Shown: positions 2,960 through 59,520 of the stretch, in pieces
Position numbering within the stretch: position 1 is the first letter of the stretch
Layout of the letters: every line of letters starts with the position of its first letter
Assembly (NCBI GenBank): GCA_032718475.1
Contig: JAUCBJ010008381.1
Coordinates: 1 to 64,000 of the forward strand
Length of the DNA: 64,000 nt
Origin: Nemertoderma westbladi
Taxonomy: Eukaryota; Animalia; Xenacoelomorpha
Reading direction: 5' to 3'
Position numbers and translations under genes: made by a program
Notes under the pieces: generated by a model
The model's database searches: none
Seen by the model: the letters and a program-made list of their open reading frames with translations, nothing else
Told to the model about the DNA's origin: nothing

Positions 2960-3155
2960 AACATGTGTACCAAGTTTGGATAGATTTCATCAAGGATTGG
3001 CCGAGTTATTAACGTTTAAAATAAAATACTGAAAAAAAACGCGACAGAACGACAGAACGACAGAACGACAGAACGACAGAACGACAGAACGACAGAACGA
3101 CAGGTTGATTAATGGTACCACTACGCTAAGGCTCACTCACTTCGTGGCTCGCCCC
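2960..3155 (+). mobile_element. Non-autonomous Helitron/Helentron-like (HINE-type) interspersed repeat with (GACAGAAC)7 microsatellite
   Basis: GACAGAAC x7 at 3043-3103 followed by a GC-richer terminal segment; related copies in opposite orientation at ~7470-7620 and ~22815-22960. Class is inferred from architecture. Confidence 0.45.
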
Positions 3156-4006
3156 ACATTAAAAATACAAGGATTAATATTTTAACATAAACCCACGAGG
3201 TAATATTATAATAAGGTAATATATTAAGCCCTTCATGGTTAAAGTGTGGAGTCACTCCTGGTTTTGCCTCACGTAGCTATTTCGCCTAGTTTAGGGCACT
3301 CAGTGCAAATTAGACAATACTAGCAAGCAGAATAGCTCAGTTGTCACCCCCCTTATTGTGTGAAAGGAGGCCATTTTCCGACATAGTCCACTAATATTAC
3401 TCCTACGTTTCCTCGAAATATCACTAACGTGACGGTATGTCTACTTTCCTTCACTGAAATACAAAATAGTTATCTTTACTTTTGTTCACTGAAATAGTGA
3501 GTAAAAAGCAATACTATATTTCTCTGCTTTTACAAACTTAAGTGAAAGATATCGAATTTTTTAGTAAATATTTGAAGCATTATTTAAGGATATTGTTAGA
3601 CGCCAGTATTTAAGGATATTGTTAGACGCCAGTTCCTGTACCTCAGCACACTGGTATTGCACGTTATGCAAACTGTGCGGCCATGGTATACGAACCAGTA
3701 CTTCGTACTACCTCGTCGAGACAGGGGGGGAAACTCGACGCAAAACCCGCCTTGGCGAATTAATATCCCGCCTCAATGTTAAATTCTCAATTTAGGGAAA
3801 GGAGCATGTTACAGTGGCACGTTATTATAATCAAAACAATAAACTAATCACAATAGAACAGGTTACAGTTTTATTTTTGAGAGTAATAAATAACCTGTTA
3901 TTTGCGTCGAATTTCCCCTGGAGAGGGATGAATTTTTATTGCGTCTAGTTTCCCCCCTATCTGACCTCGTCAAACGAGACCCAAAGGCATCGACTCGTAA
4001 GCACCT

Positions 4007-4388
4007 GCTGCTGCTAAGAGCATTAAGACCAATCGTGCTAGTGGAGTAGATGGTGTTCCCCCTGAGGTCTTTAAAATACCTGAGTGTTTAAAGTTCATCT
4101 ATCCCATCATAGTAGACATGTACCGAACAACAAGAGTCCCACAAGAAATGAAAACAAATAAGTTGGTGCCAGTTCCCAAGAAGGGCAACCTAACACTCTA
4201 TGGTTCTTTTCGGGGAATCTCATTGATCTCGATTGCTGCAAAGCTATACAATAGAATTCTATTAAATCGCATCAGGGATCCCATTGAGAGACTGCTCCGT
4301 GGCAATCAGAATGAGTTCCGTAAAGGTCGTGGGACCATGGAGCCCATTTTGGCACTTAGAAGGATAATTGAAGAGCTATCAAAAAAGT
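4007..4388 (+). mobile_element. RTE LINE internal RT fragment (same family as 42821-45217)
   Basis: Near-identical to the reverse complement of ~44020-44400 (MYRTTRVPQEMKTNKLVPVPKKG...). Confidence 0.9.
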
Positions 4389-5540
4389 TGTTGACTTCTC
4401 AAAATGTTCCAGAATATGGTTCCACATTTTTGTCTTCTCTATCTATATACTACACTATATAGCCCAGAAGGTGACACAGATTCATATATTGCTCTATTGT
4501 TTTATATTGGTAGCCCTCCGCCTCCAGGGTGACTGACAATGTATTCAGCATGCCGCATACATAGTAATCCTCCCTCGACTGGGTGTTTTGCATCCTAGAT
4601 ACATGGGGGAAGACTAGGAATGGTGCTAATTATATTAATTTATTTAATAATCATATCGTTTGTCTTTTTATTTTTTGAATCTTCAACATCGTGATTGGCT
4701 CAAGTTTTACCTGCTGCTTTACAGCTGTTAGCTATTAACTCATTTTGCTCCAATAATTAATTTATTTCGTTTTATTTTTAGCCCCTTGGATAATAATACA
4801 AAGCCAATCAACAACGTAACCCAAGGAAACGGTAACTAAGCAACAACGTAATCACACGGATTCCGTAATTAAGACATGCCGTACTCGGCAAGATGACGTT
4901 ATGGCAAAGAGAGTCGTTGGTGCGAATGAATATTAAATCGAAGAAGAAATAACTTAGCGATATTAGTGCGTGTAGAACCCCTGCCAGACACAATAGTCCC
5001 ACTGAGGACTTTAAGTCCACTCAGGTTAAAATAGTTAGTTATTTTTTTGGCATTTTACAAGGTGTTCTAGAACTGAAAAGCCATGTAGCCGTGTGGGACT
5101 GGCAGTCCCGTACGCGGTTTCTTGGCCTTTTAGTTCTAGAACGCCTTGTCCTTTGGTTATTTTAATTTAGTAACCACAGAAACTAGCTACCAATGGAACC
5201 CATCATTATAACTTTAAACTCATTCCCCATTGTGCTGTTACAATAAGCCCCACTATTTGTTGGTTAATTCTCCTGTATATATAATATAATTACCATGGCA
5301 ACAAGGTTGCATTGTCCACGTCAATATGAATTGTTACTCGTTTTTTCTACTTTTTTTTTTATTGTCCGGGTGCTCCAAGGCTCATTTTATTATCCGCAAT
5401 TTTAAAGCGCTAAATATTTATTAGGGCATAAACATATTACTTTTTACTAACGTTGGTTTCATGTGTGAAAACATTTTGTATATTCGCTGTAAATGTTTTC
5501 CATTGCATATTAAATGGTTTTATAAATTTAATTAATTTTA

Positions 5541-6284
5541 CACTGAAAAAAAAACGATTTGTTGGTTTTTTTAATAAAACCAAGAGTTTCTTTTATTAAA
5601 CCTGGGATTTAAATCATGAACCAATGGTTTTAAATTATCCCATTTTATAACTTAAAAAAGACAAAAAAGTTTAAAAAACTAATTAATTCTTTTAATCGTT
5701 CTGTTATATAAAACCTCAGATTAAATTAGAAAACTGATTAGTTTTGCTTAAAATTAGATAAAATTTAATTAATTTTAAATGTTGGAATTCTGCGCAATGA
5801 GAAAACCATTAGTTGAAAGGTTAACTTTTTTTTACATTGAGCAGAGCACTACCATAAATCCCATTAATTTATTTATATCAATAAATATATTTGTTAATGG
5901 CCCCTAACAACATAATCCAGTGTCTCGATCCGTATATAACATCGATGTGCCTTTGTCTTGCATTATTAGTTTTTCGAAAATGTGGTAGTTGGATCAGAAA
6001 GTTTCGAGTTCGAATCCCACTCGAGGTATTTATACCGTCACGATAAACTAACAGTTGATAAAGTAAAACGAATGGTTTGTGCTAAAATGAAAATGACTTG
6101 TGGTTTAAACCTTTTTTGTCTTAAAAAAAACTGTTGGTGTTTACTTGGCGCATTTCTAACTCTTCGGTTACTTTCGAAACCAAATTTGTTTTTCGTAAAT
6201 AACCAAGAGATATATATTCACAAAAAAAGAATCTTTTAAATGGTTTTTTTCGGAAAAAACCAACGTACGTTTTTTTATTCAGAG
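5541..6284. mobile_element. Degenerate MITE with imperfect TIRs (paralog ~20752-21463)
   Basis: Left CACTGAAAAAAAAACGATTTGTTGGTTTTTT versus right AAAAAACCAACGTACGTTTTTTTATTCAGAG. Confidence 0.5.
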
Positions 6285-7312
6285 ATAATGGTAGGATATT
6301 AAAGTGAAACGTGGTTTGGGTCACCTAGGTATTTCTAAAAAATACAGGTTTGTTTACGACAATAAAGTTCCAATAATATGGTCTAATGATTTTGTGGTAA
6401 ATGATTTTATAAAGTGTGTCAGTATGGCTGTCTCAGGCTCACCTAATTTACTAATTACTATATGGAATCTAACATACCCTAGTAATTAACTCCCCTGGCT
6501 GTTGGCCCTTCTATTGGCTTATTTAATTGGCGTATTGATCTGAAAACAAAAGCAGTATTTTTTCTAAAATCCAAATATCTTTTTTAAGATTTTTATTTTT
6601 GAGCGTTCTTTAAAAAGGAATTTATAGTCTAAGGCCTCATGTGATTGTAGTTGTTATAATCCATTTTCTAACGACTAAAAATGTTATACATTTAATAGTT
6701 ATGGTCTTTATTTACCTCACTGTTAGCATGGTAAATAAAATGCCCTGATAATAGGGAGAAAAAGTTCTACTTTTTTTCCCAACTAATAAATAATTATTAT
6801 TTTTTGAAGTTTTTTTATACCAAACAATTTAGTGCTATGCTATTACGGTACCATATAGTAATTGGTAAAGTTGTTTGTAGTTTTGTTATTTTTTTGTGTT
6901 ATTGTATATAAAGTCTTTCAATGATCTTTCTTTTGTTTAGAGCTCGTGTACACATAATATTACGTATCTGCTTTATTAATAAATATAATTTGTAGAAATC
7001 ACTGATTACAAACAATATTTTAATATTATCTGTAATGTTTGTTTGAAACAGTTTGACAGTTTGAAACGTGTTAACATGGGTTCTTCTGGGGACTTACGGA
7101 AAGGTATGAAAAAAAAATAAAAATAATTATAACTAAATAAACTAACTAAATATATTAATATACTAAAATACTAAATAAACAGACTAAATAAACTTAAATA
7201 AACAGAACAGAGAGAATCTATGTATCGAGTGAGCGCAGCGAGGGTGGTTTACGTAAATAAAGAAAGTCATTTAATGCTGAATAGTCTTTTTGAAAGTATA
7301 TATAAAGTGTAT

Positions 7313-7400
7313 GACGGTTTAGTTCAGATGGTTCAACAACGGCAGACCTGTAATCTATTGGCTTTGGGTTCGACCCCTGCCAAGGTCTCACTCAGCCTTT
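7313..7400 (+). mobile_element. tRNA-derived SINE head / tRNA-like pseudogene (paralog 22422-22510)
   Basis: A-box-like TAGTTCAGATGG, B-box GGTTCGACCCC and an anticodon-arm-like GCAGACCTGTAATCTAT; acceptor stem does not pair. Confidence 0.5.
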
Positions 7401-7993
7401 CATATAGCCTTTCAGCTTAGTTAGCTAGCTACCTATACCTTTGGGTCACCTCCGACTGTTTGCTTTGCTTGTGGAGCTAGCCACGAAGTAAGGTGAGCCG
7501 CAGCGTAGGGGTACCATTAATGAACCGTTGGTTCTGTTGTTCTGTCGCTCCCAATATTTAAAAGTTAATAACTCGATCATTTCTCGATGTAATGTAACCA
7601 TAATTGGTACACAAATAGTCTGTCAAAAATTTAAAAATTTCACAAGCCTCCAAGAAGCGAAGCTAAGTTAATTAATTAGTTAATTATTAAATAATTTTGT
7701 GCTTAAAAATTATAACACTGTAATCCACATATCCCATTGCATTATAGTTTTTTAAACATGCTGGTTGCAAAAAATGTGGTATTGAAAAATAAAAATGGAA
7801 AATGACGGAGGAGTAGTCTTTTCAGTGAAATTTTTAAAATCTGACGCAGGCCGCTAGGGGGCGCAAAATGTTTTTTTTTTTATTTTTTATGTACTTTTGA
7901 TGATTCTCTTTTCGATGGTATATCGTTTTCTATGCATTTTTCAACCACATTGAAGACGCATGTAGGCCTACAAAATAAAAAAACCGTAAGGGG

Positions 7994-8075
7994 GGCTGGC
8001 ATTGAAGATGCGGATAATCTCGCGAAAGTCATGAGGGATATGGAGTTGTGGCGGTGCAACTTTGTTGATAAGCCG
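7994..8075 (+). mobile_element. Old RTE 3'-end fragment (paralog ~23334-23415)
   Basis: Translates GIEDADNLAKVMRDMELWRCNFVDKP versus GLKDADDLANVMGDRELWRCNFVDKP at the end of ORF 42874-45075. Confidence 0.8.
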
Positions 8076-8440
8076 TTGATAAGCTCTGTATTGGGCTTGT
8101 CAATTGTGGATTTCATAGTGGTGGCAAAATACTTTTGTTAAGCCGGTATAGCATATCAATGTTCAGTTTCAATGCAGCAGGCCGATTATATACTGTAGTA
8201 GTAGTAGGGCCTAGGCTGTGCCTTTGGGTTGGGATGCAGATTAAAAGGGGAGGAACACTTTAAATTTTGATTCAAATATGACTTAATAAATATCATTTTT
8301 ACTAAAAATTACACCGAGGCTTTACTACACAGTTACGCTAGACACAAAATCCAATGATACACTTTATTATAAATATATTTCCATCACCTAATAACACCAA
8401 GTAGTATACTCATGCGAACATAGTTTATTGGAAAGTTTAT

Positions 8441-9054
8441 TTAGTTACAAAGATCTTCACGGCAGAAACGGGTTCTGCACTTGTCTTTGCAGGTCGATTC
8501 AGCATGTCTGCATTGGTTTTCACAAACAAGACGATTTACATATTCCTTCAAGGGCAAACTATCATCTGTTATTTCAATTTCGTCCATAAGTTCCTTTGTT
8601 ACGCAAACAGGAGTTGTCGTGATCCTGGAATATCCTACGGTTGTTGTCTGAATGAAATAAGAATATTTGTTACATTACCGTTAGTGTAGCTATATATTAA
8701 TAATAATTGTATATATCAGTAATAATTTGACGATAGTCAGCTGATTAGTAGGTTTCGTACAACCCAAGGTCTCAAGTCAAAAGAGCTAAACCCGGAAAAT
8801 GACAATATATTTACAGTAAGTCCTAAAGTGAGACATAGAATCAGAGGTAATCAATTGAAATTCGTCAAACGCGTTTCTACTTGTTAATAATATAAGGATT
8901 TATTCCTTTACAGTACAGACACTGTGTGCTCGCTTACCGCGCAAATTAGACAATCTTCCATAACATCTAGGCTTTCTTCGCGCGTGTCTAAGTGGTTGCA
9001 CCTCAAACTGTATCCAACTACAACAAATGTTGCAAATACCAACAATTTCAACAT
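8441..9054 (-). CDS. Secreted Ly6/uPAR/three-finger-like cysteine-rich protein, copy A; join(9054..8938, 8647..8441), 107 aa
   Basis: MLKLLVFATFVVVGYS|LRCNHLDTREESLDVMEDCLICA^TTTVGYSRITTTPVCVTKELMDEIEITDDSLPLKEYVNRLVCENQCRHAESTCKDKCRTRFCREDLCN*. Signal peptide, LxC start, 10 Cys, terminal CxxDLCN. Phase-0 intron GTAAGC...TTATTTCATTCAG; two AATAAA just after the stop. Confidence 0.85.
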
Positions 9055-9832
9055 TTTCACAGAATTTATTTATTTGTAACCACACAAGTTTGAAATCAAA
9101 ATAATTTATTTAAACAATAGATTGGGGAAGTCGAATATTCAAAATTCTGAAAAAAAATTCGAAATAAAAAAAATTCGAAATTTTGAAATAAACCCTATCT
9201 GAATCTTTCCCACAAATTTTGCACAAGACAGCAATACTGACAGCAATAAATTGTGTAATATTGCACAATATCGAACACCAGCAAATTGTACACCAAAGGT
9301 TCCGCGGTATATAAACTAATTCCCTTATTATTTTATTTCCCTTCAATTTATTTCACGCTTTATTTCAATGTACCTAATTATATTAAATAAGATAATAATT
9401 ATTATATTATTATTATGTATTTGCAATTTCAGCGAGACTTTCCTGTTAACAAAATTATAAGATTTCCTCAAAAATTAGCAGACTAATTTAAGTGGATATT
9501 GAAAGAGTTAACCGTATCTATATACATACTGTAGGCCTACAGGCAAAAATACTACAGTAAGACACGTGGAGTGTGTTGGACAGACCAACTGTACACTATG
9601 TAGGGTAGGTAGGTAGATACTCGACTGTATGTACGAAAGACATTGAGTCTACAGTATAAGTGTGTTGAACGAACTATAGAACTGAATGTGCAGTATAAAC
9701 TGTTGGAAACGTTATCGGGTGGCAGGTGTCTGAGTTATTTAATAATCGTAAATTATTATCCGAGGCTGCAATCTCGGCGCAATTCTATGTTGCAACAAAC
9801 TTATAGAGTAACGAGTGCTTACCGATGATATA

Positions 9833-10662
9833 TGGATCTAGGACACTTCCCCCCCGGACACTTCCCCCCCGCCCTAGTAGGACACTTCCCCCCGGACACT
9901 TCCCCCCCGGACACTTGCCCCCGGACACTCCCCCCCCCCCAGTTAAAGTGTTAAAATTAATCCCGGTGCATCAAAGCAATAAACAAAAGTTAAAGATGGT
10001 TACAGGACAAGTTGTATCAAGACAAGTTTTTTCAAAATTATAAAATAAACATTTTTATAGTCAAATTTTGTTTGTTTTTCTTTTAATTCCTTTAATTCTT
10101 TTAATTTCTTTTAATTGGGGGCTGCCGCCCCCAAACCCCCGCTTCTTTTGTTGGGGCTACCGCCCCCAAAACCCCGCTTCTTTTCTTGGGGGCTGCTGCC
10201 CCAAACCCCCGCTTCTTTTATTGGGGGTTATCGCCCCCAGACCCCGGCATTTCCCTGAGTGCCCGTGGTGAAAGACTTAAGACCATTTTGAAATAATTAA
10301 TTCATGTTTGTATCATCAGATAATAAATTGTCTAAGCCTAAAGTAGGAGCTGTATTGAATGTTAACCAATTTAATATATAAATTACTACAATATTATATA
10401 ATTCAACAAAATCCTATTAAAAATATTGCAAGTAACCATGAAATTTAATATGTAGTGTGAAATTGGATACAACTTATCTGGATACAAGCGGTCAGCGGTA
10501 CAAGCGGTTTACCTTACAAAATGAAAAATACGAATGTGAGAAGTTAAGAACAGTCGGGGGGGAAGTGTCCGCGGGGGGAAGTGTCTGGGGGGAAGTGTCC
10601 TGGGGGGAAGTGTCCTACTTGAGCGGGGGGGAACTGTCCGGGGGGGAAGTGTCCGAACACCG
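9833..10662. mobile_element. TA-flanked MITE with subterminal arrays (GGACACTTCCCCCCC)n / (GGGGGGAAGTGTCC)n
   Basis: Inverted repeat arrays at 9841-9940 and 10555-10655; absent from duplication copy B. Confidence 0.8.
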
Positions 10663-11061
10663 TACAGTACTATTAATGTATACTGTAATAATAATATAAT
10701 TGTTGCATTTAAAATTATGTGCGCCAGCATTAATACTTCGAAAACATTCAGCTCGCGGTACGCCGATTTTAGAGCATTCATCGCGTGTTCATGTCTTTTT
10801 AAATAATAGACTATGTCATCTGAATGTCAAATGTCTACAGTTTGTACAGTATGAATAAAAGGACGAAAAGTTTACAAAGTTTCAAAGTGAATACTGAGCT
10901 CAATAAAATAACACAAACTATATATATGTGATACAAAAAATATCTAACTATTTTAGATTTAGTATCATTGCCTCTTACAAAGATTTCCTATACAGGGATG
11001 AAATGAATGCTACAATAATTTTTTCCATCCAAATTGAAGGTAAATTTTGTTGTCTGCATTT

Positions 11062-11370
11062 ACACCACAGTAAACCCTTCCACTCTGTTTCCTAAAGGGA
11101 TGCCTGTTCTCCACTATGGGTTATCTTCCACAGTAAACCCTTCTACTATGTTTCCTAAAAGAATGCCTGTTCACCACCATATGGGTGATCTTCCACAGTA
11201 AACCCTTCCACTCTGTTTCCTAAAGGGATGCCTGTTCTCCACAATGGGTGATCTTCCACAGTAAACCCTTCCACTATGTTTCCTAAAAGAATGCCTGTTC
11301 ACCACCATATGGGTGATCTTCCACAGTAAACCCTTCAACTCTGTTTCCTAAAGGAATGCCTGGTCACCAC
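11062..11370. repeat. Minisatellite, 62-64 bp unit (CCACAGTAAACCCTTCCACTCTGTTTCCTAAAGGRATGCCTGTT...)
   Basis: About 5 tandem copies; same family at 59268-59520. Confidence 0.9.
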
Positions 11371-13301
11371 CGACCTAGCACCGACCTTAGTACATCTTCT
11401 GTCACCATGTGGGTGTTCATCAACTTCGTCATCAGATGCTTGGAACTACCCACGAGTCTCTCGACGCACCCTAAAGTATGCGGAGCATACAGCGTCCTCC
11501 TTTCCCACTTCACCTGTCGTCTCCTCATTGCTGCCCTGACTTCCTCTGCTTCCAGGATGTCTAAGGCCTCCGCCAGCTCATTCTCCGCCCCCACAAAGTT
11601 GGTTCCATTGTCGGAGTAGATCAGTGCGATCGTCCCACCTTTGCGGTCTCTGAATCTCTCTAGGGCATTGATAAATGCCGATGCGGTTGCGTCTTGGGCG
11701 AGTTCTATTCCTACCGCCCGCGTGTTGTTACATACCAAGATAATGCCGTAGCGCTTCTCCGTGTGCCGCATCACCCTGATCTTTATCGGCCCGAATATGT
11801 CTACACTGCAGTGCGTGAATGGCGGGTCGTGCTGTCTCACCCTGCTGGCCGGTAATGGCGCCATCTCCTGTACGGCCCACTCCTTCCTCGTCCGTCGGCA
11901 GGTCTGGCACTGCCCCACTACCGCCTTCACCTTCTTTCTTAGTTGTGTGATCCAGAAGGTCCTCCGTATCTCCGTGAGGGTCCGGTTGGTGCCCCCGTGC
12001 AATATCGACTTGTGGGAGTCCCAAATGATCTGGTGGACCATCGGCGATCTATTCGGGATGATGATGGGTTTCGGTGGGATAATGAGGCTGTTGTTATTTA
12101 GCACTCTGGAGTTCATTACTAAGATCCCATCGTCATTGAGTTGTGGCGACAGCATGATGAGCTCGCTGTCCCGTCGAAGATGTTGTTGTTTACCGACGCG
12201 CTCCACTTCGTCGCCGTAGTTCTTTCTCTGTTCGTAGCAAATCACGGCCTTGGCCGCTCCCTCCAGATCGATGTTTGGTTTCCTCTTGGCGTCTTTGCCA
12301 ATTCCCTTGAGGAAATCCCCGAAGGCTCTCCAGTACGCTACCAACTTCTTGGTCTTGTACCAACTTGAGCTGTAGCTGAGGAGTTTATCCGTCGGGTTAT
12401 CGCATGGTTCTTCTGGTTTTGGTTGCACGTCCCTGATCTCCCTCACCATCTGACTATATATCTCTTCACCTTCTGAGTCTCCTCCCTCTTCCTCTAGTGC
12501 TACTTCCTCTGAGCCTGGGTCCACCTTCTTCATCGGTGGCCAGGCTGTCTTATCGTTCAGGAATTGTGGCCCGTGCTGCCACAATACTTCCTTCTTTAAG
12601 AAAGTGTGGCGTGCCACGCCCCTCGATAACAAGTCCGCTGGGTTCTCGTCCGTTGTGCAGTAGTGCCACCTTTCCAACTCAGTCGTCGCTCTTATTTCGT
12701 CCACCCTATTTGCGACGAATATAGGGTATCTCGTCTTCTCATTGTGTAGCCAACCAAGCACTACCATGGAGTCCGTCCAGTAGTGTGTTTCCACTATGTT
12801 GGGAATATTGTCCATCAAGTAGGCTGTGGCCCTTACTCCTAACCTCGCAGCTGTCAACTCGAGTTTCGGGACCAATGCTGAATCTGGCGGCGTCGACTTT
12901 GCTTTGCTGAATGCAAGTCTGGGCTTATGAGCCCCCTCTCGTTGTACTAGGTAGAGTGCCGCTCCGTATGCTTCCAATGACGCACCGGAGAACATGTGTA
13001 GCTGTAGATCCAGATCCGTCATGTCCCCATTCGGGAAATACACGCGTGGCATGCTGTATGTTCCCATCTGTTCTAAACTCTCTGTCCACTTACTCCACTG
13101 CTTGCTGATCTCTTCCGGGACCTCTGTATCCCACTCGTCCTTTAGCTTATATACTTTCTTAAGTATTTGCTTCCCCGTGACTAGTAGTGGGGATGATAGG
13201 CCTAGGGGATCGTATATCCTTGCTATGTACGATACATAGCCCCTCTTTGTGTGGATGTCCGCGCCCTCTTGGCTCAGCTGGTACTTGAACTAGTCTGTCT
13301 C
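11370..13301 (-). mobile_element. BEL/Pao pol fragment (end of RT, RNase H, integrase), third family
   Basis: TKRGYVSYIARIYDPLG, LHMFSGASLEAYGAALYL, VPKLELTAA, YWTDSMVVLGW, NPADLLSRG, HHCC (H..ILHGG..CQTC), VDIFGP, YSDNGTNFVGA, ERLVG. Confidence 0.93.
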
Positions 13302-13612
13302 TGTGAGTGGATTCAATTCCGCTCACTATCCCCATAAAGTTGGCAAGTGGCGCCTTTTTCAGCAATATTGGGGATACGAGATTAATGACACCTAATCTCG
13401 TATCACCCCCAATAATGGGACTACTCATAGCCCCAAAGAGCAACACAAAGAGAGGTTAGAGGTCAAACATTCCCGAGAGGGAAAGTAACAGCAGTGGGGG
13501 GGGGGGGGGAAGCACTCCCACAGAGGTGGGAGCCGAGAATTCGGTTATTATCCAATCAGGGACAGGGAAGAGAGCATCCGCTAGGTACCAAGGCCACAGT
13601 AGTGTAGGGATA
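13302..13612 (+). repeat. Partial LTR-like sequence starting TG
   Basis: Starts TGTGAGTGGATTCAATTCCGCTCAC; diverged reverse-complement homolog at ~16060-16363. Confidence 0.6.
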
Positions 13613-13649
13613 ACAATATATATTATCAGCATACCTTTTTACCGGTCAG

Positions 13650-15020
13650 TTATCCCAGTCATTAGAGCAGTTAGGTGACAGTTTCGTACCGGAGAAGTCG
13701 ATCGATCAGTAACCACGCTGATGCTGGTCGACAGTGGAGCAGCCTTCACATTGGTCGAGAATTGGGTGGCCGAAGAGATAGGATTGAGGACGAGGCCAAG
13801 TAGAATGGCAGTAACAACCATCTCCAGCAAAGATGAGGTCCTGGAGATGAGGACCGGATGGTGCGGGATAGCAGCGATAGCACCGGGATGCGATTATGGG
13901 GCGACGATCGACCCCATCCAGGTGATAGAATCGATAAATATCAACGCCAGGCGACCAACCAACATCGAAGTCGAACAATATAGATTCCTGGACAGTATCG
14001 ACTTCTCAATCCCAGAGGTGGACGTTAGGAAGGTATCCATTATAGTAGGAATGGACTGCCCGACGGCCCACGAGAGAATGCAGACGGTCTTCGGCGAAGA
14101 CAGACAGCGCGACCCGGTGGCGATTTTAACACCATTCGGGTGGATGCTAAGCGGCCCAATCAGAACCAAGATTCCGTTTAGGATGTCGGAGACATCAGCT
14201 CAGGAGACTACTCAGACAGGACTTTGAGGGATTGAAAGAGACCGGGGTCGGAACCTCGGTAGAAGATAAACAGGCAATACTAAGTGTGAAGGAGTCGATG
14301 AGATGTGAGGAGGGACGGTACACCATAGACATGGTGTGGAAACAGCCGAAGCTACCGTTGCCTGACAACAAGAGGATGGTACTCACGAGGCTTCGCAAAC
14401 TGAAGCAAACGCTGAAACGGAGCCCCAAAAAGGATGAGTACATCCATAAGATGATAAGGAAGTACGTTGAGAAAGGATGGGCCGTGGAGTTGCCGGTCGA
14501 CGAACCGAACACGGACAGGGCCTACTACCTGCCACTTCATGTGGCTCTAGATCCAAAGAAAGGTAAATTGCGGATGGTAGTTGATGCATCAGCTAAAACC
14601 AACGGCATGTGCCTAAATGACTATCTGCTGGAGGGCCCCAATATCTTTAACTCGGGAATCGAGGTCCTACTGAGATTTAGAAATGGGAGACACGCCTTCA
14701 CCTGCGACATTGAAGGCATGTTCAACCAAGTCCGTGTGACGGAGGAGGATAGTGACAGCCAGTGCTTCCTATGGTACAACGGCAACGAGGAACCGTCGAC
14801 AATACCGATGTACAAGATGGTGGTGCAGAATATGGGGGCCAAGTCGTCCTCATTTACGATGACTGTGGCTGTAAGGGATACAGTAGAGGGGAAAGAGGGG
14901 AAGTATAGCGCCAAAGACGTCGATATGATTCGACGCGGCTTCTATGTGGACGACGGAATGGAATCTGGAAATATGGTTAAAGAACTACTGGATACAGGGC
15001 GCGAGGTTCGCGACATCCTA
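13650..15020 (+). mobile_element. BEL/Pao protease plus RT fragment (frameshifted), opposite strand to 11370-13301
   Basis: LVDSGA protease motif, IIVGMD, TPFGWML, YYLPLH, KLRMVVDAS, LNDYLLEGP, DIEGMFNQV, FYVDD. Confidence 0.92.
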
Positions 15021-15127
15021 TATAGCAATCAATAATTTCTTTACACAATTTAACTCGCCAGTAACTATCAGGTGGAGAAGGCACATATCATAAATTAGAA
15101 AGGTCACCTACTGATATTTTACGTAGA

Positions 15128-15848
15128 TCATTTTATACCACACTCATTCCCTATGTTACGCAAGTTCGCACCACTTCTACATCTACAATCATAAAATACT
15201 AAATTTGCCAGAAATCTTATACACAATTTATCAGAAGTCAAAACACTAGTTGCAAATTTAACTAAACGTTTACTGAGCATAACCTTAGGGTGGGGAAAAT
15301 TAACAATATCTTCTACTATGAACCTATGGCTGTTATACAGCAGATGATAAATGTAGCGCACATTCGTATTCCAAGCTGTGTATATTCTACGGCATTCATC
15401 AGAAGCCAAATCCCAAACTGGGCTTCCATAAAAACTTGTCGCATAAATACGTTGAATGTTAGACAAGCACTGCGGGTGAGCGAATGAAAATTCCTGCCTT
15501 AAATTTGCCAATTTTCCTATAAATGCACCTCTCTTACGCTGTATATCTATATTGACACTACACGTAAAATTAAGCAGAATTCCTAAATGTAGCCCTTTCT
15601 CAACCCATGGTAGTGTAACGTTATTTACTGAAATATTCACACTAGGCGGCTTCCATGTGTTCTGGAACGGGATACATTTAGTTTTACTTTTTTTCGGATC
15701 AATATCAGTACTAATCTGTAATTTATACTCTTTACAAAAATCTTTGCAAATATTAATCATGTATTGTAGGCCAATTACGGATGGGCACAATAGAAACATA
15801 TCGTCCGCAAAGGACGGACAACCATAAAACTGAGCACCAATATAACAA
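15128..15848 (-). mobile_element. Non-LTR retrotransposon RT C-terminal fragment (RTEX-like)
   Basis: CYIGAQFYGCPSFADDMFLLCPSVIGLQYMINIC...KSKTKCI...HLGILL...SFYGSPVWDL; cut off at the LTR-like segment at 15849. Confidence 0.8.
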
Positions 15849-16363
15849 TGTTGATATAAACGATAATATTGTTAACTAAACATAATAGCACAGTTGTTCA
15901 AGATGAGATAACGAATAATATGATATAAGTGAGATAATGAGGTAACTGAATAGGATACCGGTAACGGTGGTGACGGCGGTGACGGTACAAGAATGGTCCC
16001 CACTGTGAGACTGAGATAACTGAAAGGGGCACAAACATTAACCGGTAATATATATTCACCTCTACTCTACTTGTGGCCTTGCTACTTAGCGGATGCATTT
16101 CCCTGGCTCTGATTGGCCAATAACCTAATTCTCGGCTCCCACCTCTGTGGGAGTGTTTCCCCACCCCCCTGCTGCTGTCACTTTCCCTCTTCAAGAGGTT
16201 TGACCTATAACTTCTTTTGTGTGGCTCTTTGGGGCCGTGTGTTGTCCCCGTTATTGGGGGTGATACGAGGTTGATTGTGATCAACCTCGTACTCCCCAAT
16301 ATTGCTTAAAACGCCACTTCCCAACTTTATGGGGGTTGGTGAGCGGAATTGAATCCGCTCACA
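15849..16363 (-). repeat. Solo-LTR-like element (TG...CA, ~515 bp), no TSD found
   Basis: TG/CA ends, CCAAT and TATA-like motifs, homologous to 13302-13612; it truncates the neighbouring LINE. Confidence 0.5.
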
Positions 16364-19286
16364 GATACTGGGTTTTGTTATACGTCATTTTTATATGTAT
16401 TTTGTATTTTCTATATAACACAAGACTTTGGACAACACATGATTGATGTTTCCATCAATGAATTTCCACAAAAACTTGCCAGTACTTAGTTTTAAGCTAT
16501 TGGTTAAACTACCCACGTTGTTAAATATATGAATTTGTTTTCCGGATTTGAGAAATTGTTGATAAAATGGAGCATAAGTCAGGTTTAGGCGCATACACTT
16601 TTTGGAGATACTGGGTTTTGTTATACTTTATTTTTATGTGTATTTTCTATATAACTATAGATGATACTGGGTTTTGAAATATAAAAATGAGCAAAAATGG
16701 TGAGATACACGGTTTTGGCAATTTCAAAAACCTATTTCCCCTTCTTCAAATGCTTAGAAACTTCACAGACAGACGCAGAACAGTTTCCTGATTCGAATGA
16801 TATATTTGCAATGAAAGGACCGATTATCTTTCAGCATTCTAATTTCTGATATTTAGCATACTGCTATTATCAGACGTGTGTTTGCCTGCAATGTTGTGAA
16901 TAATGCCCTGAATTCGAGCCTTTATCCCCACACCCTCCCAAAAATATTTTTCTATAAATCTTAAGGGGGGGGGGGGGGGGGGGGGGGGGGTCAGCCGACA
17001 GACAGACTAGATTCATTTTTTAACCACTTTCCTTTATTTTTGGCTCAATTGAAAGGGTTTCGGCTGTTCTTTAAAAGTTATCGGTTGGAATTCTTTATAT
17101 TTCAGTTTTTAATGCCAATTTTTCAGATTAAAGCCAAAAATTTGTTAACATTTTGCCAAAAATTGTCAGTTATTCTGCCCTCGTGTGTTGAGTTTTCCAC
17201 TCTATGGCATTTTTTTCCTATTATTCTATAGCAAAAACTTCCAACTCGTGTAAAACTCAACCACTCGGACTGAATAGTTGAATTTCGCTAAATTGAATAT
17301 GAGTGAAAAAAGCGGTGTTTTCCGCTTACTTTTTGTTATCGAATAATTGTCCTTATTCGTTGATTAATTTTGTTTTATTTTGATTAATTTTAATTAATTT
17401 TGTTGATGCGTTTTTCCATTGATGCTTAGTTTACCTCACTTATTTTCACCTTCCATTCATTCTCAATGATACCTGTTTGAATTCCTGGAATTTTATAGTT
17501 CCTAACGTATAGTAGTTGTAGCCTTAGAGTATACGGTAGTTTCCTTTCCGAAAATGAGTGGGTGTTTTGTAAAACTGCCTCGGATTTAATGTATGTGATT
17601 CTTAGAAAATACAAGAATATCTGCATCGTATCTGTTTAGGTCAAAAACTCCTTCATAGAACTTTAGTAACTCCACTTAGGTAAGCCATGGTTGTTACTAT
17701 TTCCGATAAGGATGGTGGGTGTTTTATAAAACTGACGTAGTGCATTGCTTCAGTTTCCGTAACAACTACAACAATGACGCCTCTGTCACTCTCAGTGGCT
17801 TTATTATCAAACGACTTGTGAGTTGCGGCATTAGAGACCTATATAAAATAAACAGGTAAAGCAGTAAAAAAAAAACAGGCTTACCATTTGGTTTCATTGT
17901 TCTGTGGTCTGATGTCTGTTTGGGAGAGTGGTAACAGATTTTGGTGCGATTATAGTAGGTCATTATCGGTGCAATAAAGATAGGCTTTGGGTAATCCTTT
18001 GTCCAGCTGATGAGGTGTCGGAAATTACCGCGTACTGGGTCTCAGACACCGAAACGCAACCATATTTTTGATAAAATTTATTATTTTTGCCCTAACTCTA
18101 CCCCATTTACGGCGACAAAATGTCGAATATATTTTCTTATAGAATATAGGCTTAGCTTTTGTGCAGTATACTATCGGTATCATTTAGTGTATGGCGGTTA
18201 GGCTTAGGGTTAGGGTGCGATACTTACCTGTATGTTGAGCAGATTTAATATATTTGTGTTTTTTGTTTATGTTGTTATTTGTTTGTATTGTTTTTGCGGT
18301 TTTTGATGGCCCTAGTGGCTGAGTACTACTTTGGGCGTTAATGTCCTGATTCTATGTATTTTGTTAGTTTGTGGGGTGTAAGACTCGAGGTTTTATCTGA
18401 TTATTTTATATACAATAGCCCCTGTTAGTCAGTATGTCGACCTTTAATTATCATTAAAGACCTACAAACACAAACTGGGAGAGTGCTGCATCATCCATAA
18501 GCGGGTTGTTTTTAGATTTTATATAAATATGATATTCCCAAATCACTAGAACATAGAGTATATGGCGCACTAGTTCGGCAATATCATTTTACTGCCATCC
18601 ACTAATTTTATTTTATCATTATACACCGCCATCGCGGTTGGCATATATATCTTTTTATTTAGTATCCAACATTAAAAATACAAGGATTAATATTTTAACA
18701 TAAACCCACGAGGTAATATTATAATAAGGTAATTTATTAAGCCCTTCATGGTTAAAGTGTGGAGTCACTCCTGGTTTTGCCTCACGTAGCTATTTCGCCT
18801 AGTTTAGGGCACTCAGTGCAAATTAGACAATACTAGCAGAGTAGCTCAGTTGTCACCCCCCTTATTGTGTGAAAGGAGGCCATTTTCCGACATAGTCCAC
18901 TAATTTTACTCCTGCGTTTCCTCGAAGTATCACTAACGTGACGGTATGTCTACTTTCCTTCAGTGAAATACAAAAATAGTTATGTTTACTTTTCTTCACT
19001 GAAATAGTGAGTAAAAAGCAATACTATATTTCTCTGCTTTTACAAACTTAAGTGAAAGATATTTTTATTTTTTTTATTTTTAGTAAATATTTGAAGCATT
19101 ATTTAAGGATATTGTTAAACGCCAGTTCCTGTACCTCAGCACACTGGTATTGCACTTTATGCAAACTGTGCGGCCATGGTATACGAACCAGTACTTCGTA
19201 CTACCTCGTCGAGACAGGGGGGGAAACTCGACGCAAAACCCGCCTTCGCGAATTAATATCCCGCCTCAATGTTAAATTCTCATACG

Positions 19287-19594
19287 TGAGTGTTTAAAGT
19301 TCATCTATCCCATCATAGTAGACATGTACCGAACAACAAGAGTCCCACAAGAAATGAAAACAAATAAGTTGGTGCCAGTTCCCAAGAAGGGCAACCTAAC
19401 ACTCTATGGTTCTTTTCGGGGAATCTTATTGATCTCGATTGCTGCAAAGCTATACAATAGGATTCTATTAAATCGCATCAGGGATCCCATTGAGAGACTG
19501 CTCCGTGGAAATCAGAATGGGTTCCGTAAAGGTCGTGGGACCATGGAGCCCATTTTGGCACTTAGAAGGATAATTGAAGAGCTTATCAAAAAAG
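19287..19594 (+). mobile_element. RTE LINE RT fragment (paralog of 4007-4388)
   Basis: ORF 19324-19674 matches the RTE ORF at 42874-45075. Confidence 0.9.
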
Positions 19595-22500
19595 TTGTTG
19601 ACTTCTCAAAATGTTCCAGAATATGGTTCCACATTTTGTGTCTTCTCTCTATATACTACAACTACACTATATAGCCCAGAAGGTGACACAGATTCATATA
19701 TTGCTCTATTGTTTTATATTGGTAGCCCTCCGCCTCCAGGGTGACTGACAATGTATTCAGCATGCCGCATACATAGTAATCCTCCCTCGACTGGGTGTTT
19801 TGCATCCTAGATACATGGGGGAAGACTAGGAATGGTGCTAATTATATTAATTTATTTAATAATCATATCGTTTGTCTTTTTATTTTTAGAATTTTCAACA
19901 TCGTGATTGGCTCAAGTTTTACCTGCTGCTTTACAGCTGTTAGCTATTAACTCATTTTGCTCCAATAATTAATTTATTTCGTTTTATTTTTAGCCCCTTG
20001 GATAATAATACAAAGCCAATCAACAACGTAACCCAAGGAAACGGTAACTAAGCAACAACGTAATCACACGGATTCCGTAACTAAGACATGCCGTACTCGG
20101 CAAGATGACGTTATGGCAAGGAGAGTCGTTGGTGCGAATGAATATTAAATCGAAGAAGAAATAACTTAGCGATATTAGTGCGTGTAGAACCCCTGCCAGA
20201 CACAATAGTCCCACTGAGGACTTTAAGTCCACTCAGGTTAAAATAGTTAGTTATTTTTTTGGCATTTTACAAGGTGTTCTAGAACTGAAAAGCCATGTAG
20301 CCGTGTGGGACTGGCAGTCCCGTACGCGGTTTCATGGCCTTTTAGTTCTAGAACGCCTTGTCCTTTGGTTATTTTATTTTAGTAACCACAGAAACTAGCT
20401 ACCAATGGAACCCATCATTATAACTTTAAACTCATTCCCCATTGTGCTGTTACAATAAGCCCCACTATTTGTTGGTTAATTCTCCTGTATATATAATATA
20501 ATTACCATGGCAACAAGGTTGCATTGTCCACGTCAATATGAATTGTTACTCGTTTTTTCTACTTTTTTTTTATTGTCCGGGCGCTCCAAGGCTCATTTTA
20601 TTATCCGCAATTTTAAAGCGCTAAATATTTATTGGGGCATAAACATATTACTTTTTACTAACGTTGGTTTCATGTGTGAAAACATTTTGTATATTCGCTG
20701 TAAATGTTTTCCATTGCATATTAAATGGTTTTATAAATTTAATTAATTTTACACTGAAAAAAAACGATTTGTTGGTTTTTTTAATAAAACCAAGAGTTTC
20801 TTTTATTAAACCTGGGATTTAAATCATGAACCAATGGTTTTAAATTATCCAATTTTATAACTTAAAAAAAGACAAAAAAAGTTTAAAAAACTAATTAATT
20901 CTTATAATCGTTCTGTTATATAAAACCTCAGATTAAATTAGATAAAATTTAATTAATTTTAAATGTTGGAATTCTGCGCAATGAGAAAACCATTAGTTGA
21001 AAAGTTAACATTTTTTTACATTGAGCAGAGCACAACCATAAATCCCATTAATTTTACTTATATCGATAAATATATTTGTTAATGGCCCCTAACAATAATC
21101 CAGTGTCTCGATCCGTATATAACATCGATGTGCCTTTGTCTTGCATCATTAGTTTTTCGAAAATGTGGTAGTTGGATCAGAAAGTTTCGAGTTCGAATCC
21201 CACTCGAGGTATTTATACCGTCACGTTAAACTAACAGTTGATAAAGTAAAACGAGTGGTTTGTGCTAAAACGAAAATGACTTGTGGTTTGAACATTTTTT
21301 GTCTTAAAAAAAACTGTTGGTATACTTGGTGCATTTCTAACTCTTAGGTTACTTTCGAAACCAAATTTGATTTTCGTAAATAACCAAGAGTTATAAATTC
21401 ACAAAAAAAAAGAATCTTAAATGGTTTTTTCGGAAAGAACCAACGTACGTTTTTTTTTCAGAGTTAATTGTAGGATATTAAAGTGAAACGTGGTTTGGGT
21501 CACCTAGATATTTCTAAAAAATACAGGTTTATTTACGACAATAAAGTTCCAATAATATGGTCTAATGATTTTGTGGTAAATGATTTTTTAAAGTGTGTCA
21601 GTATGGCTGTCTCAGGCTCACCTAATTTACTAATTACTATATGGAATCTAACATACCCTAGTAATTAACTCCCCTGGCTGTTGGCCCTTCTATTTGCTTA
21701 TTTAATTGGCTTATTGATCTGAAAACAAAAGCAGTATTTTTTCTAAAATCCAAATATCTTTTTAAGATTTTTATTTTTAACCATTCTTTAAAAAGGAATT
21801 TATAGTCTAAGGCCTCATGTGATTGTAGTTGTTATAATCCATTTTCTAACGACTAAAAATGTTATACATTTAATAGTTATGGTCTTTATTTACCTCACTG
21901 TTAGCATGGTAAATAAAATGCCCTAATAATAGGGAGAAAAAGTTCTACTTTTTTTCCCAACTAATAAATAATTATTATTTTTTGAAGTTTTTTTATACCA
22001 AACAATTTAGTGCTATGCTATTACGGTACCATATAGTAATTGGTAAAGTTGTTTGTAGTTTTGTTATTTTTTTTGTGTTATTGTATATAAAGTCTTTCAA
22101 TGATCTTTCTCTTGTTTAGAGCTCGTGTACACATAATATTACGTATCTGCTTTATTAATAAATATAATTTGTAGAAATCACTGATTACAAACAATATTTT
22201 AATATTATCTGTAATGTTTGTTTGAAACCGTTTGACAGTTTGAAACGTGTTAACATGGGTTCTTCTGGGGACTTACGGAAAGGTATGAAAAAAAAATAAT
22301 TATGTAAAAAACAGAGCAGAGAGAATCTATGTATCGAGTGAGCGCAGCGAGGGTGGTTTACGTAAATAAAGAAAGTCATTTAATGCTGAATAGTCTTTTT
22401 GAAAGTATATATAAAGTGTATGACGGTTTAGTTCAGATGGTTCAACAACGGCAGACCTGTAATCTATTGGCTTTAGGTTCGACCCCCGCCATGGCCTCAC

Positions 22501-23755
22501 TCAGCCTTTCATATAGCCTTTCAGCTTAGGTAGCTACCTATACCTAAGGTAGCTACCATTTTCTTCATCTTGTTCCGGTGTCTCATCACCAAGATCAAGC
22601 CAGTGCTGTATGTTTATAGTTTCAATAGCTTGCTCCAAAATATCATGGTCACGTTGATCAGGAAAATAGCTTTCAAACAGTAGCCGATTATAGTTTGTCA
22701 TTGTATTTGTATCACTTATAGCAGATGACCAATGACCTATACCTTAGGTAGCTACCTATATCTTAGTAGCTATCGAAAGATGAGCCTTTGGGTCACCTCC
22801 GTCTGTTTGCTTTGCTTGTGGAGCTAGCCACGAAGTAAGGTGAGCCGCAGCGTAGGGGTACCATTAATGAACCGTTGGTTCTGTTGTTCTGTCGCTCCCA
22901 ATATTTAGACGTTCGATCATTTCTCGATGTAATGTAACCATAATTGGTACACAAATAGTCTGTCAAAAATTTAAAAATTTCACAAGCCTCCAAGAAGCGA
23001 AGCTAAGTTAATTAATTAGTTAATTATTAAATAATTTTGTGCTTAAAAATTATAACACTGTAATCCACATATCCCATTGCATTATAGTTTTTTAAACATG
23101 CTGGTTGCAAAAAATGTGGTATTGAAAAATAAAAATGGAAAATGACGGAGGAGTAGTCTTTTCAGTGAAATTTTTAAAATCTGACGCAGGCCGCTAGGGG
23201 GCGCAAAAGGTTTTTTTTTTATTTTTTATGTACTTTTGATGATTCTCTTTTCGATGGTATATCGTTTTCTATGCATTTTTCAACCACATTGAAGACGCAT
23301 TTAGGCCTACAAAATAAAAAAAACCGTAAGGGGGGCTGGCATTGAAGATGCGGAGAATCTCGCGAAAGTCATGAGGGATATGGAGTTGTGGCGGTGCAAC
23401 TTTGTTGATAAGCCGTTGATAAGCTCTGTATTGGGCTTGTCAATTGTGGATTTCATAGTGGTGGCAAAATACTTTTGTTAAGCCGATAGCATATCAATGT
23501 TCAGTTTCAATGCAGCAGGCCGAATTTAGTAGTAGTGCCTTTGGGTTGGGATGCAGATTAAAATGGCAGGAACACTTTAAATTTTGATTCAAATATGACT
23601 TAATAAATATCATTTTTACTAAAAATTACACCGAGGCTTTACTACACAGTTACGCTAGACACAAAACCCAATGATGCACTTTATTATAAATTTATTTCCA
23701 TCACCTAATAACTCCAAGTAGTACTCATGCGAACATAGTTTATTGGAAAGTTTAT

Positions 23756-24447
23756 TTAGTTACAAAGATCTTCATTGCAGAAACGGAGGCTGCAGTTGTC
23801 TTTGCAGGTCGATTCAGCATATCTGCATTGGTTTTCACAAACATGACGATTTACATATGCCATCAAGGACAAACGATCATCTGTTATTTCAATTTCGTCC
23901 ATAAGTTCCCTTGTTACGCAAACAGGAGTTCTCGTGATCCATCCTACGGTTGTTGTCTGAATGAAATAAGAATATTTGTTACATTACCGTTAGTGTAGCT
24001 ATATAATAATAATAATTGTATATTATCTATATTTTTTGACGATAGTCAGCTGATTGGTAGGTTTCGTACAACCCAAGGTCTCAAGAGTCATACCCGGAAA
24101 ATGACAATATAATTTATTAAGTCCTAAAGTGAGACATAGAATCAGGGGTAATCAATTGAAATTCGTCAAACGCGTTTCTACTTGTTAATATTATTAACTG
24201 GGGTGCTTGTGTGTGTGTCGGCTAAATACATTTCTGGTGTTAGCTGAATCGGTGAAACTGGGTGTTGTTTAGAAGTTTGCCAGGCCCGCCATTTATTCTT
24301 TTACAGTACAGACACTGTGTGCTCGCTTACCGCGCAAATTAGGCAATCTTCCATAACATCTAGGCTTTCTTCGCGCGTGTCTAAGTGGTTGCACCTCAAA
24401 CTGTATCCAACTACAACAAATGTTGCAAATACCAACAATTTCAACAT
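23756..24447 (-). CDS. Secreted Ly6/uPAR/three-finger-like protein, copy B; join(24447..24331, 23956..23756), 105 aa
   Basis: Exon 1 protein identical to copy A. Exon 2 reads TTTVGWITRTPVCVTRELMDEIEITDDRLSLMAYVNRHVCENQCRYAESTCKDNCSLRFCNEDLCN*. Splice sites, all 10 Cys and AATAAA are conserved. Confidence 0.85.
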
Positions 24448-26238
24448 TTTCACAGAATTTATTTATTTGTAACCACACAAATTTGAAATCAAAATAATTT
24501 ATTTAAACAAAAGATTGGGGAAGTCGAATATTCAAAATTCTGAAAAAAAATTCGAAATAAAAAAAATTCGAAATTTTGAAATAAACCCTATCTGAATCTT
24601 TCCCACAATTTTGCACAAGAATATTTCATACCCTAGCTAGGCACACTGACAGCAATAAATTGTGTAATATTGCACAATATCGAACACCAGCAGATTGTAT
24701 ACCAAGGGTTCCGATCTTTTATTTCCCTTCAATTTGTTTCACGCTTTATTTCAATGTACCTAATTATATGAAATAAGACAAATTATTATATTATTATTAT
24801 GTACTGTATTTGCAATTTCAGCGAATTATAAATTTTAATATCAAAAACATATAAATATAAATACTTAACACACAAGATAAGCACGCAATAGCAGACAATA
24901 TTAAACAGGATCCAATACATACAAACCAGTCTATTTCTTTATATGTATAGTAATGATTTTTAAAGAATGTTTAGACTTTGCGAGACTTTCCTGTTAACAA
25001 AGTTAAAAGATTTCCTCAGAAATAAGCAGACTAGTGTGAGTGGGTATAGTTAACCGTATCTACTGTATATATATTATAAACTGTACAGGCCAAAATACTA
25101 CAGTAAGACACGTGGAGTGTGTTGGACAGACCAACTGTACACTATGTAGGGTAGGTAGGTAGATACTCTACTGTATGTACGAAAGACATTGTCTACAGTA
25201 CAAGTGTGTTGAACGAACTATAGAACTGAATGTGCAGTATAAACTGTTGGAAACCTTATCGGGTGGCAGGTGTCTGAGTTATTTAATAATCGTAAATTAT
25301 TATCCGAGGCTGCAATCTCGGCGCAATTCTATGTTGCAACAAACTTATATAGAGTAACGAGTGCTTATCGATATATTGGTACTGTATATACAGTACACGT
25401 TCGTGGGGCCATCGAGCAGGACGAGGCTTAGTTATCAGATACAGATTAAAATTGAGCGACTGTATCAAAAATTAGGTTTTGAGAAATTTACCCACACCAC
25501 CAACCAATCAAAGAAAGGGGGACAGTACGTGTTCACCCCTTTTAATCTGCACCCCCCCCCCCCCCCCCCCACCCTTCCCTCCCACCAGTACTTTATAACT
25601 ACGCAGTAGGCAGTACTCGTCTTCATTATTATAAACGTCGTTGTGCTCGTTCTGTTTTGTATTTAAACATATTTCCTAAACGCAAACTGACGGACGATCT
25701 TTATAACTACCGATGCCTTTAATAGGCGAAGCCAGGTATGGTTAATAGGAATATAGTCTACACAGTACTCGTCTTCATTATATGCCTCGTTGCGCTCGTC
25801 GGTCGTCCTGTTTTGCATTAAAATATTTTTCCTAAACCAAGACTGATGACCTTTATACAGTTATAAATATGCAAAGTTTCGAAACTGTGCGAGTAACTGC
25901 TGATACATCTATGTGGAGAAGTGTGATACAACGCCAACGCATCGTATGCCGATGTAGTAATGGGTATTGAAATAATATTAAATCAATGTACACTCTTAAA
26001 GCTGCAGCGAAAAAATGTAGATAATTTCCTAGGTTACATATAAAATAATAATATTATTTTTAAGAACATTAATTTTACTACTTTGCAAAAATTCAATTAA
26101 AAAATAACCAGACAAATATTGCGGAATATACTATTTCAGATATAAGCCTACAACAGTCATTATATCTTCTGTCATCTGAGATAGTAAGTAATACAACATT
26201 TATAGTATAGAGTCAATAGGAATTGAAATACAGGCAGT

Positions 26239-37140: not shown

Positions 37141-37151
37141 ATAACTGTTAT
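37141..37151 (-). promoter_or_regulatory. Non-canonical primer-binding site of element 1 (ATAACAGTTAT on the element strand)
   Basis: Abuts the 5' LTR, has no TGG, and is the exact complement of LTR positions 37929-37939. Confidence 0.7.
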
Positions 37152-59267: not shown

Positions 59268-59520
59268 AAGAATGCCTGTTCACCACCACTGGTGATATTC
59301 CACAGTAAACCCTTCCACTCTGTTTCCTAAAGGAATGCCTGTTCACCACCACTGGTGATATTCCACAGTAAACTCTTCCACTCTGTTTCCTAAAGGAATG
59401 CCTGTTGACCACCACTGGTGATATTCCACAGTAAACCCTTCCATTCTGTTTCCTAAAGGAATGCCTGTTCACCACCATGGGTTATCTTCCACAGTAAACC
59501 CTTCCACTCTGTTTCCCAGG
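59268..59520. repeat. Minisatellite, ~63 bp unit, paralog of 11062-11370
   Basis: About 4 tandem copies; explains the repetitive ORF 59260-59478. Confidence 0.9.

Follow-up and report, generated by a model that had tools for sequence, protein, structure and literature searches.

Does a 6.7-kb duplication in the genome of the xenacoelomorph Nemertoderma westbladi carry two copies of a secreted protein gene in which one exon has been reshaped by selection? The question was raised by a preliminary description of the first 64,000 nucleotides (nt) of contig JAUCBJ010008381.1 (assembly GCA_032718475.1), the whole stretch being referred to below as the window. According to this description, the window contains two intact two-exon genes, here termed copy A and copy B, which encode three-finger proteins of the Ly6-like (LU) type under positive selection. 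The explanation we favor, and consider somewhat more probable than improbable, is that A and B are paralogs that each encode, in an intact gene, a likely secreted, disulfide-stapled 10-kDa protein, the exon 2 surface of which would have been diversified by selection for a variable partner. The pair is a real orphan family; both the three-finger assignment and the case for selection are weaker than the preliminary description had scored them.

Two intact genes for a likely secreted protein

The duplication consists of unit A (3153..9831) and unit B (18666..25376). Unit B is a direct repeat of unit A with approximately 2% non-coding divergence, and each unit carries one minus-strand gene. Both reading frames are intact and encode 107 amino acids in copy A and 105 in copy B. 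In copy A, the first coding exon (8938..9054) encodes a predicted 16-residue signal peptide followed by 23 mature residues that contain Cys19, Cys35, and Cys38. It is followed by a 290-nt GT-AG intron in phase 0 (8648..8937) and by the last exon (8441..8647), which has 68 codons and a stop, seven cysteines, and a C-x4-C-N-stop end. In copy B, the first coding exon (24331..24447) encodes 39 residues identical to those of A, the phase 0 GT-AG intron (23957..24330) is 374 nt long and contains an insertion found only in B, and the last exon (23756..23956) has 66 codons and a stop. Each protein contains ten cysteines, all common to both copies.

The product is likely a secreted protein, judging from its sequence. 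The N-terminus is hydrophobic, with a top 11-residue hydropathy of 2.79 from residue 4 compared to a later maximum of 1.4-1.6, and the stop directly after CN leaves neither copy with a C-terminal hydrophobic tail, in keeping with the secreted type claimed earlier. Assuming cleavage after residue 16, a site placed by a hydropathy heuristic, the mature chains are 91 (A) and 89 (B) residues long. Both proteins are acidic, with isoelectric points of 4.8 (A) and 4.5 (B).

Transcript evidence from public sequencing runs

Four of the six public sequencing runs listed (X1 to X4) hold part of the stretch, and none is recorded as RNA. Contigs from these runs were compared with positions 7800-9800 at 85% likeness, and the results given here and below cover 40 of the 116 rows of letter differences, 12 of the 40 indel rows, and 15 of the 44 joints. 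Run X4 behaves as RNA: its depth is 2016-40181 in exon bins and 40-122 in the three intron-only bins. It also contains a loose end of 19 T at position 8265, compared to a run of just 4 T in the genome itself. This resembles a poly(A) tail and marks a likely poly(A) site at the end of the copy A 3' untranslated region (UTR; 8265..8440, minus strand). Just downstream of this site, in both units, lies a very high-copy short repeat (7996-8190 in unit A), the contigs of which add up to a depth of more than 280000 in each of three DNA runs or over them.

The last exon of copy B is the form present in X4. One 208-letter contig spans 8462-8648 and differs there by 12 letters and a 6-nt gap, which is exactly the B pattern. 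The same contig runs on into the final nucleotides of exon 1 of copy B, where it has the silent variant of B; its loose end coincides with the 3' end of that exon. These observations support the predicted splice junction of copy B and, together with the poly-T end, the view of the preliminary description that the gene is real and spliced. Three points weigh against this evidence. Run X4 is listed as 'DNA?', the B junction was found in one contig of one run with 27 loose letters compared to the 31 asked by the tool, and no A-type exon 2 was seen among the X4 contigs listed, leaving copy A without a sign of expression there.

Two X4 contigs join 9146 to 9443; their shorter side measures 35 letters, and the intervening letters are not shown. 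A further, non-coding first exon, from 9443 upward, is therefore likely, and the two exons described earlier make up the coding part only, although the claim of two intact genes stands. The corresponding 5'-UTR intron of copy A (9147..9442, minus strand) is 296 nt long, and its counterpart in copy B (24540..24990, minus strand), identified by homology only, is 451 nt. In both, the donor is GA, with AG and A on its two sides, and the AG acceptor is pyrimidine-rich. This donor matches the GA-AG intron consensus described for a copepod and a larvacean (PMC7072748). A paralog with an ordinary donor may be the source of the contigs that join 9146 to 9443.

Replacement changes in exon 2

Exon 2 differs between A and B by 14 substitutions in 12 codons, all of which are replacements, and by one in-frame 6-nt indel; no synonymous change was found. 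The single change in exon 1, at Cys35, is synonymous. All of these counts, and the amino-acid changes listed in the preliminary description, were reproduced. The divergence of exon 2 (14/201 aligned sites, 7.0%) exceeds the non-coding average of the duplication (121/5432, 2.2%; Fisher P = 1.7e-4) and is reached by 8 of 244 overlapping non-coding windows. The fraction of replacement (N) sites changed, pN, is 0.092-0.098, and the fraction of silent (S) sites changed, pS, is 0, giving N:S = 14:0 (P = 0.013-0.030 for kappa 1-3). When 14 random exon 2 substitutions were simulated, the probability of no silent change was 0.022-0.039. The mature part of exon 1 has no change at 52 N sites, compared to 14 at 146 in exon 2 (P = 0.023).

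Several results count against selection. Exon 2 was chosen for testing after the data had been seen, and over the whole coding sequence the ratio is 14:1, which is not significant (P = 0.052-0.128). When the five clustered substitutions are dropped and only the nine isolated ones are kept, P rises to 0.09-0.12 by simulation; some of the clustered positions vary separately among the sequencing-run contigs. The retention of all cysteines and the lack of a gained stop are unremarkable (P = 0.11-0.13 by simulation). Exon 2 also shows no clear excess over its own intron, the divergence of which depends on the aligner (12/266, 4.5%, or 17/252 to 23/282, 6.7-8.2%), with replacement sites higher at P = 0.053 or 0.33. 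The earlier statement that exon 2 diverges more than the flanking DNA thus holds for the non-coding average and not clearly for the adjacent intron, and the claim of positive selection retains a replacement excess that is significant only post hoc.

Non-coding divergence is 3.3-4.9% beside the gene and 0.9-2.3% farther away. Where selection opposes gene conversion, divergence between paralogs should peak locally (PMC2588116), and the gene-centered peak (4.5-7% compared to 0.9-2.3%) fits this; old balanced alleles would also be expected to produce it. Taken together, the sequence comparisons make diversifying selection on exon 2 probable. In this estimate, the pattern across the family weighs as much as the A/B pair.

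Variants of a diversifying family

Other contigs in the runs suggest that A and B have relatives. X4 contains contigs whose matches are confined to the signal region (to codon 20-21) and to the final codons with the 3' UTR (joints 8429-8993 and 8471-8995). A like pattern of kept ends and an unmatched coding middle is seen in X2 and X3 (joints 8447-8645 and 8921-8995), and a further joint, 8486-8646, skips the coding middle. One contig with a depth of 121.9, the parts of which are tied by equal depth, matches the intron with 9 other letters and 8 gaps over 191 letters and also matches codons 93-107, with the 159 bases between left unmatched; from record positions, we infer approximately 120 letters in this stretch, or 39 fewer. 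These patterns are consistent with divergent paralogs in which the coding middle has moved beyond alignment and the signal peptide, intron, C-terminus, and 3' UTR have stayed alike. What tells against them is that the joints were called at 85% likeness, that the shorter side is no longer than 30 letters in three of the five, and that the intervening letters are not shown.

Closer variants of exon 2 were also found. Run X3 contains three types with a total depth of 353. One is a B type (162); the other two are A-like (106 and 85), one of them with the B residue at codon 73 and the other with the B residue at codon 71. The 162:106:85 depths fit two loci if the sample is one diploid. X2 contains three types with depths near 27, 32, and 37, and X1 contains only two A-like types (33.5 and 26.3), with no B-type exon 2 listed. 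Codon 102 occurs as Arg, Asn, and Tyr. Some A-like contigs have a gap count of 3 letters, so both this gap and the 6-nt indel keep the frame by length. At the silent exon 1 site, the B letter is present in all four runs (one contig listed per run). Three types in one sample would require two loci in a single diploid, and pools are possible. We conclude that A and B belong to a rapidly diversifying family, as the run-contig variants and paralogs both support.

Sequence searches placed neither copy in a known family. In Pfam, none of the three exon peptides, scanned separately although the domain spans the intron, matched LU, and only unrelated sub-threshold matches were returned. Exon 2 of copy A gave no candidates among proteins of 37-119 residues and no match to PDB sequences at E up to 10, neither exon 2 had a match in the Atlas, and none of six candidates scored with exon 1 plus one codon. 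The lone match of copy A exon 2 among 1.84 billion representatives was a repetitive low-complexity protein, which was dismissed as noise. These blank searches do not show novelty because every query was a single exon. A literature search with general terms found no description of this gene family, which is no proof of its absence from print.

A scaffold with half of the three-finger hallmarks

The LU domain is defined by 60-90 residues and ten (or eight) cysteines (PMC6600238), and the mature chains, with 91 or 89 residues and ten cysteines, agree with this. Both copies also have the C-x4-C-N end, with Asn after the last cysteine, and the predicted signal peptide without a glycosylphosphatidylinositol (GPI) signal, by the hydropathy heuristic, is as expected of secreted LU proteins. 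The cysteine spacing is 15,2,15/13,26,3,6,3,4,4. The first value falls within the 17.0 +/- 5.9 given for eight-cysteine three-finger proteins that lack the 2-3 bond (PMC4029566).

The remaining hallmarks argue against an LU assignment. The CC doublet of the CCxxxxCN motif (PMC4839075, PMC4029566) is absent, with Phe before Cys101 and the preceding cysteine five residues earlier. Only LxC is present of the N-terminal LxCxxC, the next cysteine being 15 residues on. LU genes typically, though not strictly, have a signal-peptide exon and two domain exons separated by phase-1 introns (PMC6600238); here, the sole coding intron is in phase 0 after codon 39. A 26-residue insert between cysteines is a further departure from the three-finger pattern. 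The LU fold is also marked by three beta-hairpin fingers and by core disulfide bonds 1-3, 2-4, 5-6, and 7-8. AlphaFold models of exon 2 alone had low confidence (predicted local distance difference test, pLDDT, of 55.6 and 46.2), omitted the first third of the domain, and contained no beta-strands. In both models, a helix at approximately residues 70-87 leads into the first CX3C and a short helix joins Cys92 to Cys96, so Cys81-x3-Cys85-x6-Cys92-x3-Cys96 (CX3C-x6-CX3C) is predicted to be helical. Fold searches with the copy A exon 2 model found no match.

Because the models and profile scans covered single exons, the A/B protein is not filed as an LU member. Of the three-finger/Ly6 fold claimed originally, the size, the cysteine count, LxC, and C-x4-C-N remain; the CC doublet, LxCxxC, and the phase-1 introns do not, and the low-confidence models are helical. 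Most likely, the scaffold of the family is derived from LU and atypical. The leading model, which we regard as somewhat more probable than not, is a core of LU origin in which the third finger has been remodeled, followed by a helical fold outside LU.

Proposed explanation

In the favored explanation, the signal peptide would be cut after residue 16, and bonds between Cys19 and Cys38, Cys35 and Cys54, and Cys101 and Cys106 would form a three-finger-like core. Finger 2 would be the beta-branched stretch from Cys38 to Cys54 with the indel at its tip; by reading, this Thr/Val/Ile-rich stretch suits a beta-hairpin with the indel at the turn. In place of the third finger, there would be the long insert, which would end in a helical hairpin held together by the disulfides of the two CX3C pairs. 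Segmental duplication would enlarge the family, with the signal peptide, intron, and UTR staying alike as the mature exon diverges, and the binding surface in exon 2 would be selected by a changing partner. By analogy, the most likely partner is a receptor on the cell surface that serves in recognition (of mates or gametes, or in immunity/defense) rather than a venom target, because the proteins are acidic like the salamander plethodontid modulating factor (PMF) and because amino-acid polymorphism occurs between samples.

Alternative explanations

A and B might instead be two alleles that share one locus and were put in tandem by an assembly error, or they might represent a duplication that is polymorphic; their differences would then be a balanced polymorphism rather than paralog divergence. 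Non-coding divergence of approximately 2%, as between A and B, is within the usual range of heterozygous invertebrates. Old balanced alleles would also raise divergence in the intron and upstream of the gene, and alleles of one locus could explain why X1 showed no B-type and X4 no A-type exon 2 among the contigs listed, codons 71-98 being only A-like in X1 and only B-like in X4, a point that counts against paralogy. We nevertheless consider this unlikely, since the three types in X3 (in a ratio of approximately 2:1:1) and in X2 could not stem from a single locus of one diploid, although a pool could contain them, and since homology stops at the unit ends and further paralogs show that the family duplicates. 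More doubtful still is relaxed constraint on exon 2 after duplication, with a ratio of replacement to silent rates (dN/dS) near 1 and the lack of silent changes due to chance. The non-significant test of the whole coding sequence, a replacement rate not clearly above that of the intron, and the post hoc choice of exon 2 all allow it. The changes themselves, at 0 of approximately 43-52 silent and 14 of approximately 143-152 replacement sites, speak against it, as do the repeated changes at codon 102 and the paralogs whose introns align where the exon does not, because relaxation alone should not make exons outrun introns.

Two further alternatives leave the genes in place and concern what they encode. 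The scaffold could be a lineage-specific, mainly helical, cysteine-rich fold built around the CX3C-x6-CX3C hairpin, with LxC and C-x4-CN as mere LU look-alikes and with the genes and their selection unchanged. We view this as a serious possibility, short of probable: the cysteine spacing is far from that of CD59 (PMC4839075), the CC doublet is missing, both models place helices at the same sites, and the coding intron is in phase 0 where LU genes generally have phase 1 (PMC6600238). The models that suggest helices are of low confidence and lack the first third of the domain, however, and the divergent paralogs retain the start (through Cys19-Asn20) and the last codons, which are the parts conserved in LU; the first spacing of 15 also lies in the three-finger range (PMC4029566). 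Finally, the proteins could be venom or defensive toxins like the snake three-finger toxins, given their secreted-type architecture and a family pattern of exons changing faster than introns; toxin or defense roles of secreted invertebrate three-finger proteins are put forward in PMC13719153, though only as a hypothesis. Against this, the exon-only queries matched no toxin in sequence or structure, and A and B are net acidic like PMF while most three-finger proteins are basic (PMC4029566). The toxin role named in the preliminary description thus gained no specific support, and we judge it the least probable of these alternatives.

Genomic setting

The window is filled with reading frames resembling long terminal repeat (LTR) retrotransposons and long interspersed nuclear elements (LINEs), which we take to be BEL/Pao and RTE elements, and its GC content is 31-50% in 2-kb bins. 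This repeat content suggests animal DNA. Beyond the ends of the two units, no homology was found apart from common repeats, and tblastn, blastn, and a motif scan detected no third gene copy within the 64-kb window. Rfam had no match in 3000-26000. An element with approximately 100-bp terminal inverted repeats (9841-10654), which resembles a miniature inverted-repeat transposon, abuts the end of unit A. Long frames like LTR-retrotransposon gag-pol occur at 11364-15035, 30678-34919, and 48016-54575, two of these copies being approximately 83% alike. LINE-like reverse-transcriptase frames lie at 42874-45222, and nearly identical pieces recur at 4007-4387 and 19282-19594. Two 1289-bp copies (26238-27526 and 37151-38439) are 100% identical and probably represent either a recent duplication or the two LTRs of an element that is still very young; between them is a 349-codon frame (27605-28654) with a weak zinc-knuckle match. 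A tandem repeat with a unit of approximately 63 bp is found at 11065-11371 and 59267-59516. On the minus strand at 1432-2028, part of the SPRY domain of a DDX1-type helicase (Pfam E 3.5e-11; DDX1-like proteins match it at 53-64%) degenerates after approximately 90 residues and is likely a pseudogene piece.

Comparison with known systems

A family of small secreted proteins that is expressed and hypervariable, and in which the changing positions are few and sharply defined, would give direct access to a recognition system; it may also represent a new disulfide scaffold. Given such divergence, the family would probably escape profile searches of annotated proteins. Fast-evolving secreted cysteine-rich families are common in general, which limits the surprise. 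The crustacean hyperglycemic hormone (CHH) has six cysteines spaced 15, 2, 12, and then x3-C-x8-C, and the first four cysteines of A and B, at 15, 2, and 13-15, resemble this. The remaining cysteines do not match those of the CHH superfamily, and neither exon had a Pfam match.

Invertebrate LU proteins occur in all animal phyla surveyed and have almost no assigned functions (PMC13719153). Like secreted LU proteins such as SLURP1 and the snake three-finger toxins, A and B have a signal peptide followed by LxC, ten cysteines in approximately 90 residues, a C-x4-C-N-stop end without a GPI tail, and clustered duplicates. They differ from them in lacking the CC doublet and LxCxxC, in a second spacing of 2 and a fourth of 26, in two CX3C motifs, in a phase-0 intron, with a single exon encoding both the signal peptide and the start of the mature chain, and in the lack of a profile or fold match in exon-only tests. 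The spacing of 3, 6, and 3 from Cys81 to Cys96, where helices are predicted, fits the CX3C-X4-20-CX3C motif of the plant alpha-hairpinins, from which proteins with three or more cysteines outside the motif are excluded (PMC11591084). A and B have six further cysteines and are animal genes, and the likeness is at most a convergent sub-motif.

The salamander courtship pheromone PMF is acidic, secreted, highly duplicated, positively selected, and derived from the three-finger fold with an altered framework (PMC4029566). A and B are likewise acidic, of the secreted type, and duplicated, and no homology is claimed. PMF has eight cysteines in near-canonical spacing with shuffled bonds, whereas in A and B the spacing itself differs. 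We can suggest only tentatively, as a rather doubtful possibility, that A and B represent an undescribed hypervariable recognition family of secreted invertebrate proteins, with a three-finger scaffold in which the third finger has become a disulfide-stapled helical hairpin, exons that change faster than introns, many copies, and protein-level alleles. By analogy, and just as tentatively, such a family would be an invertebrate counterpart of the salamander PMF or snake toxin families.
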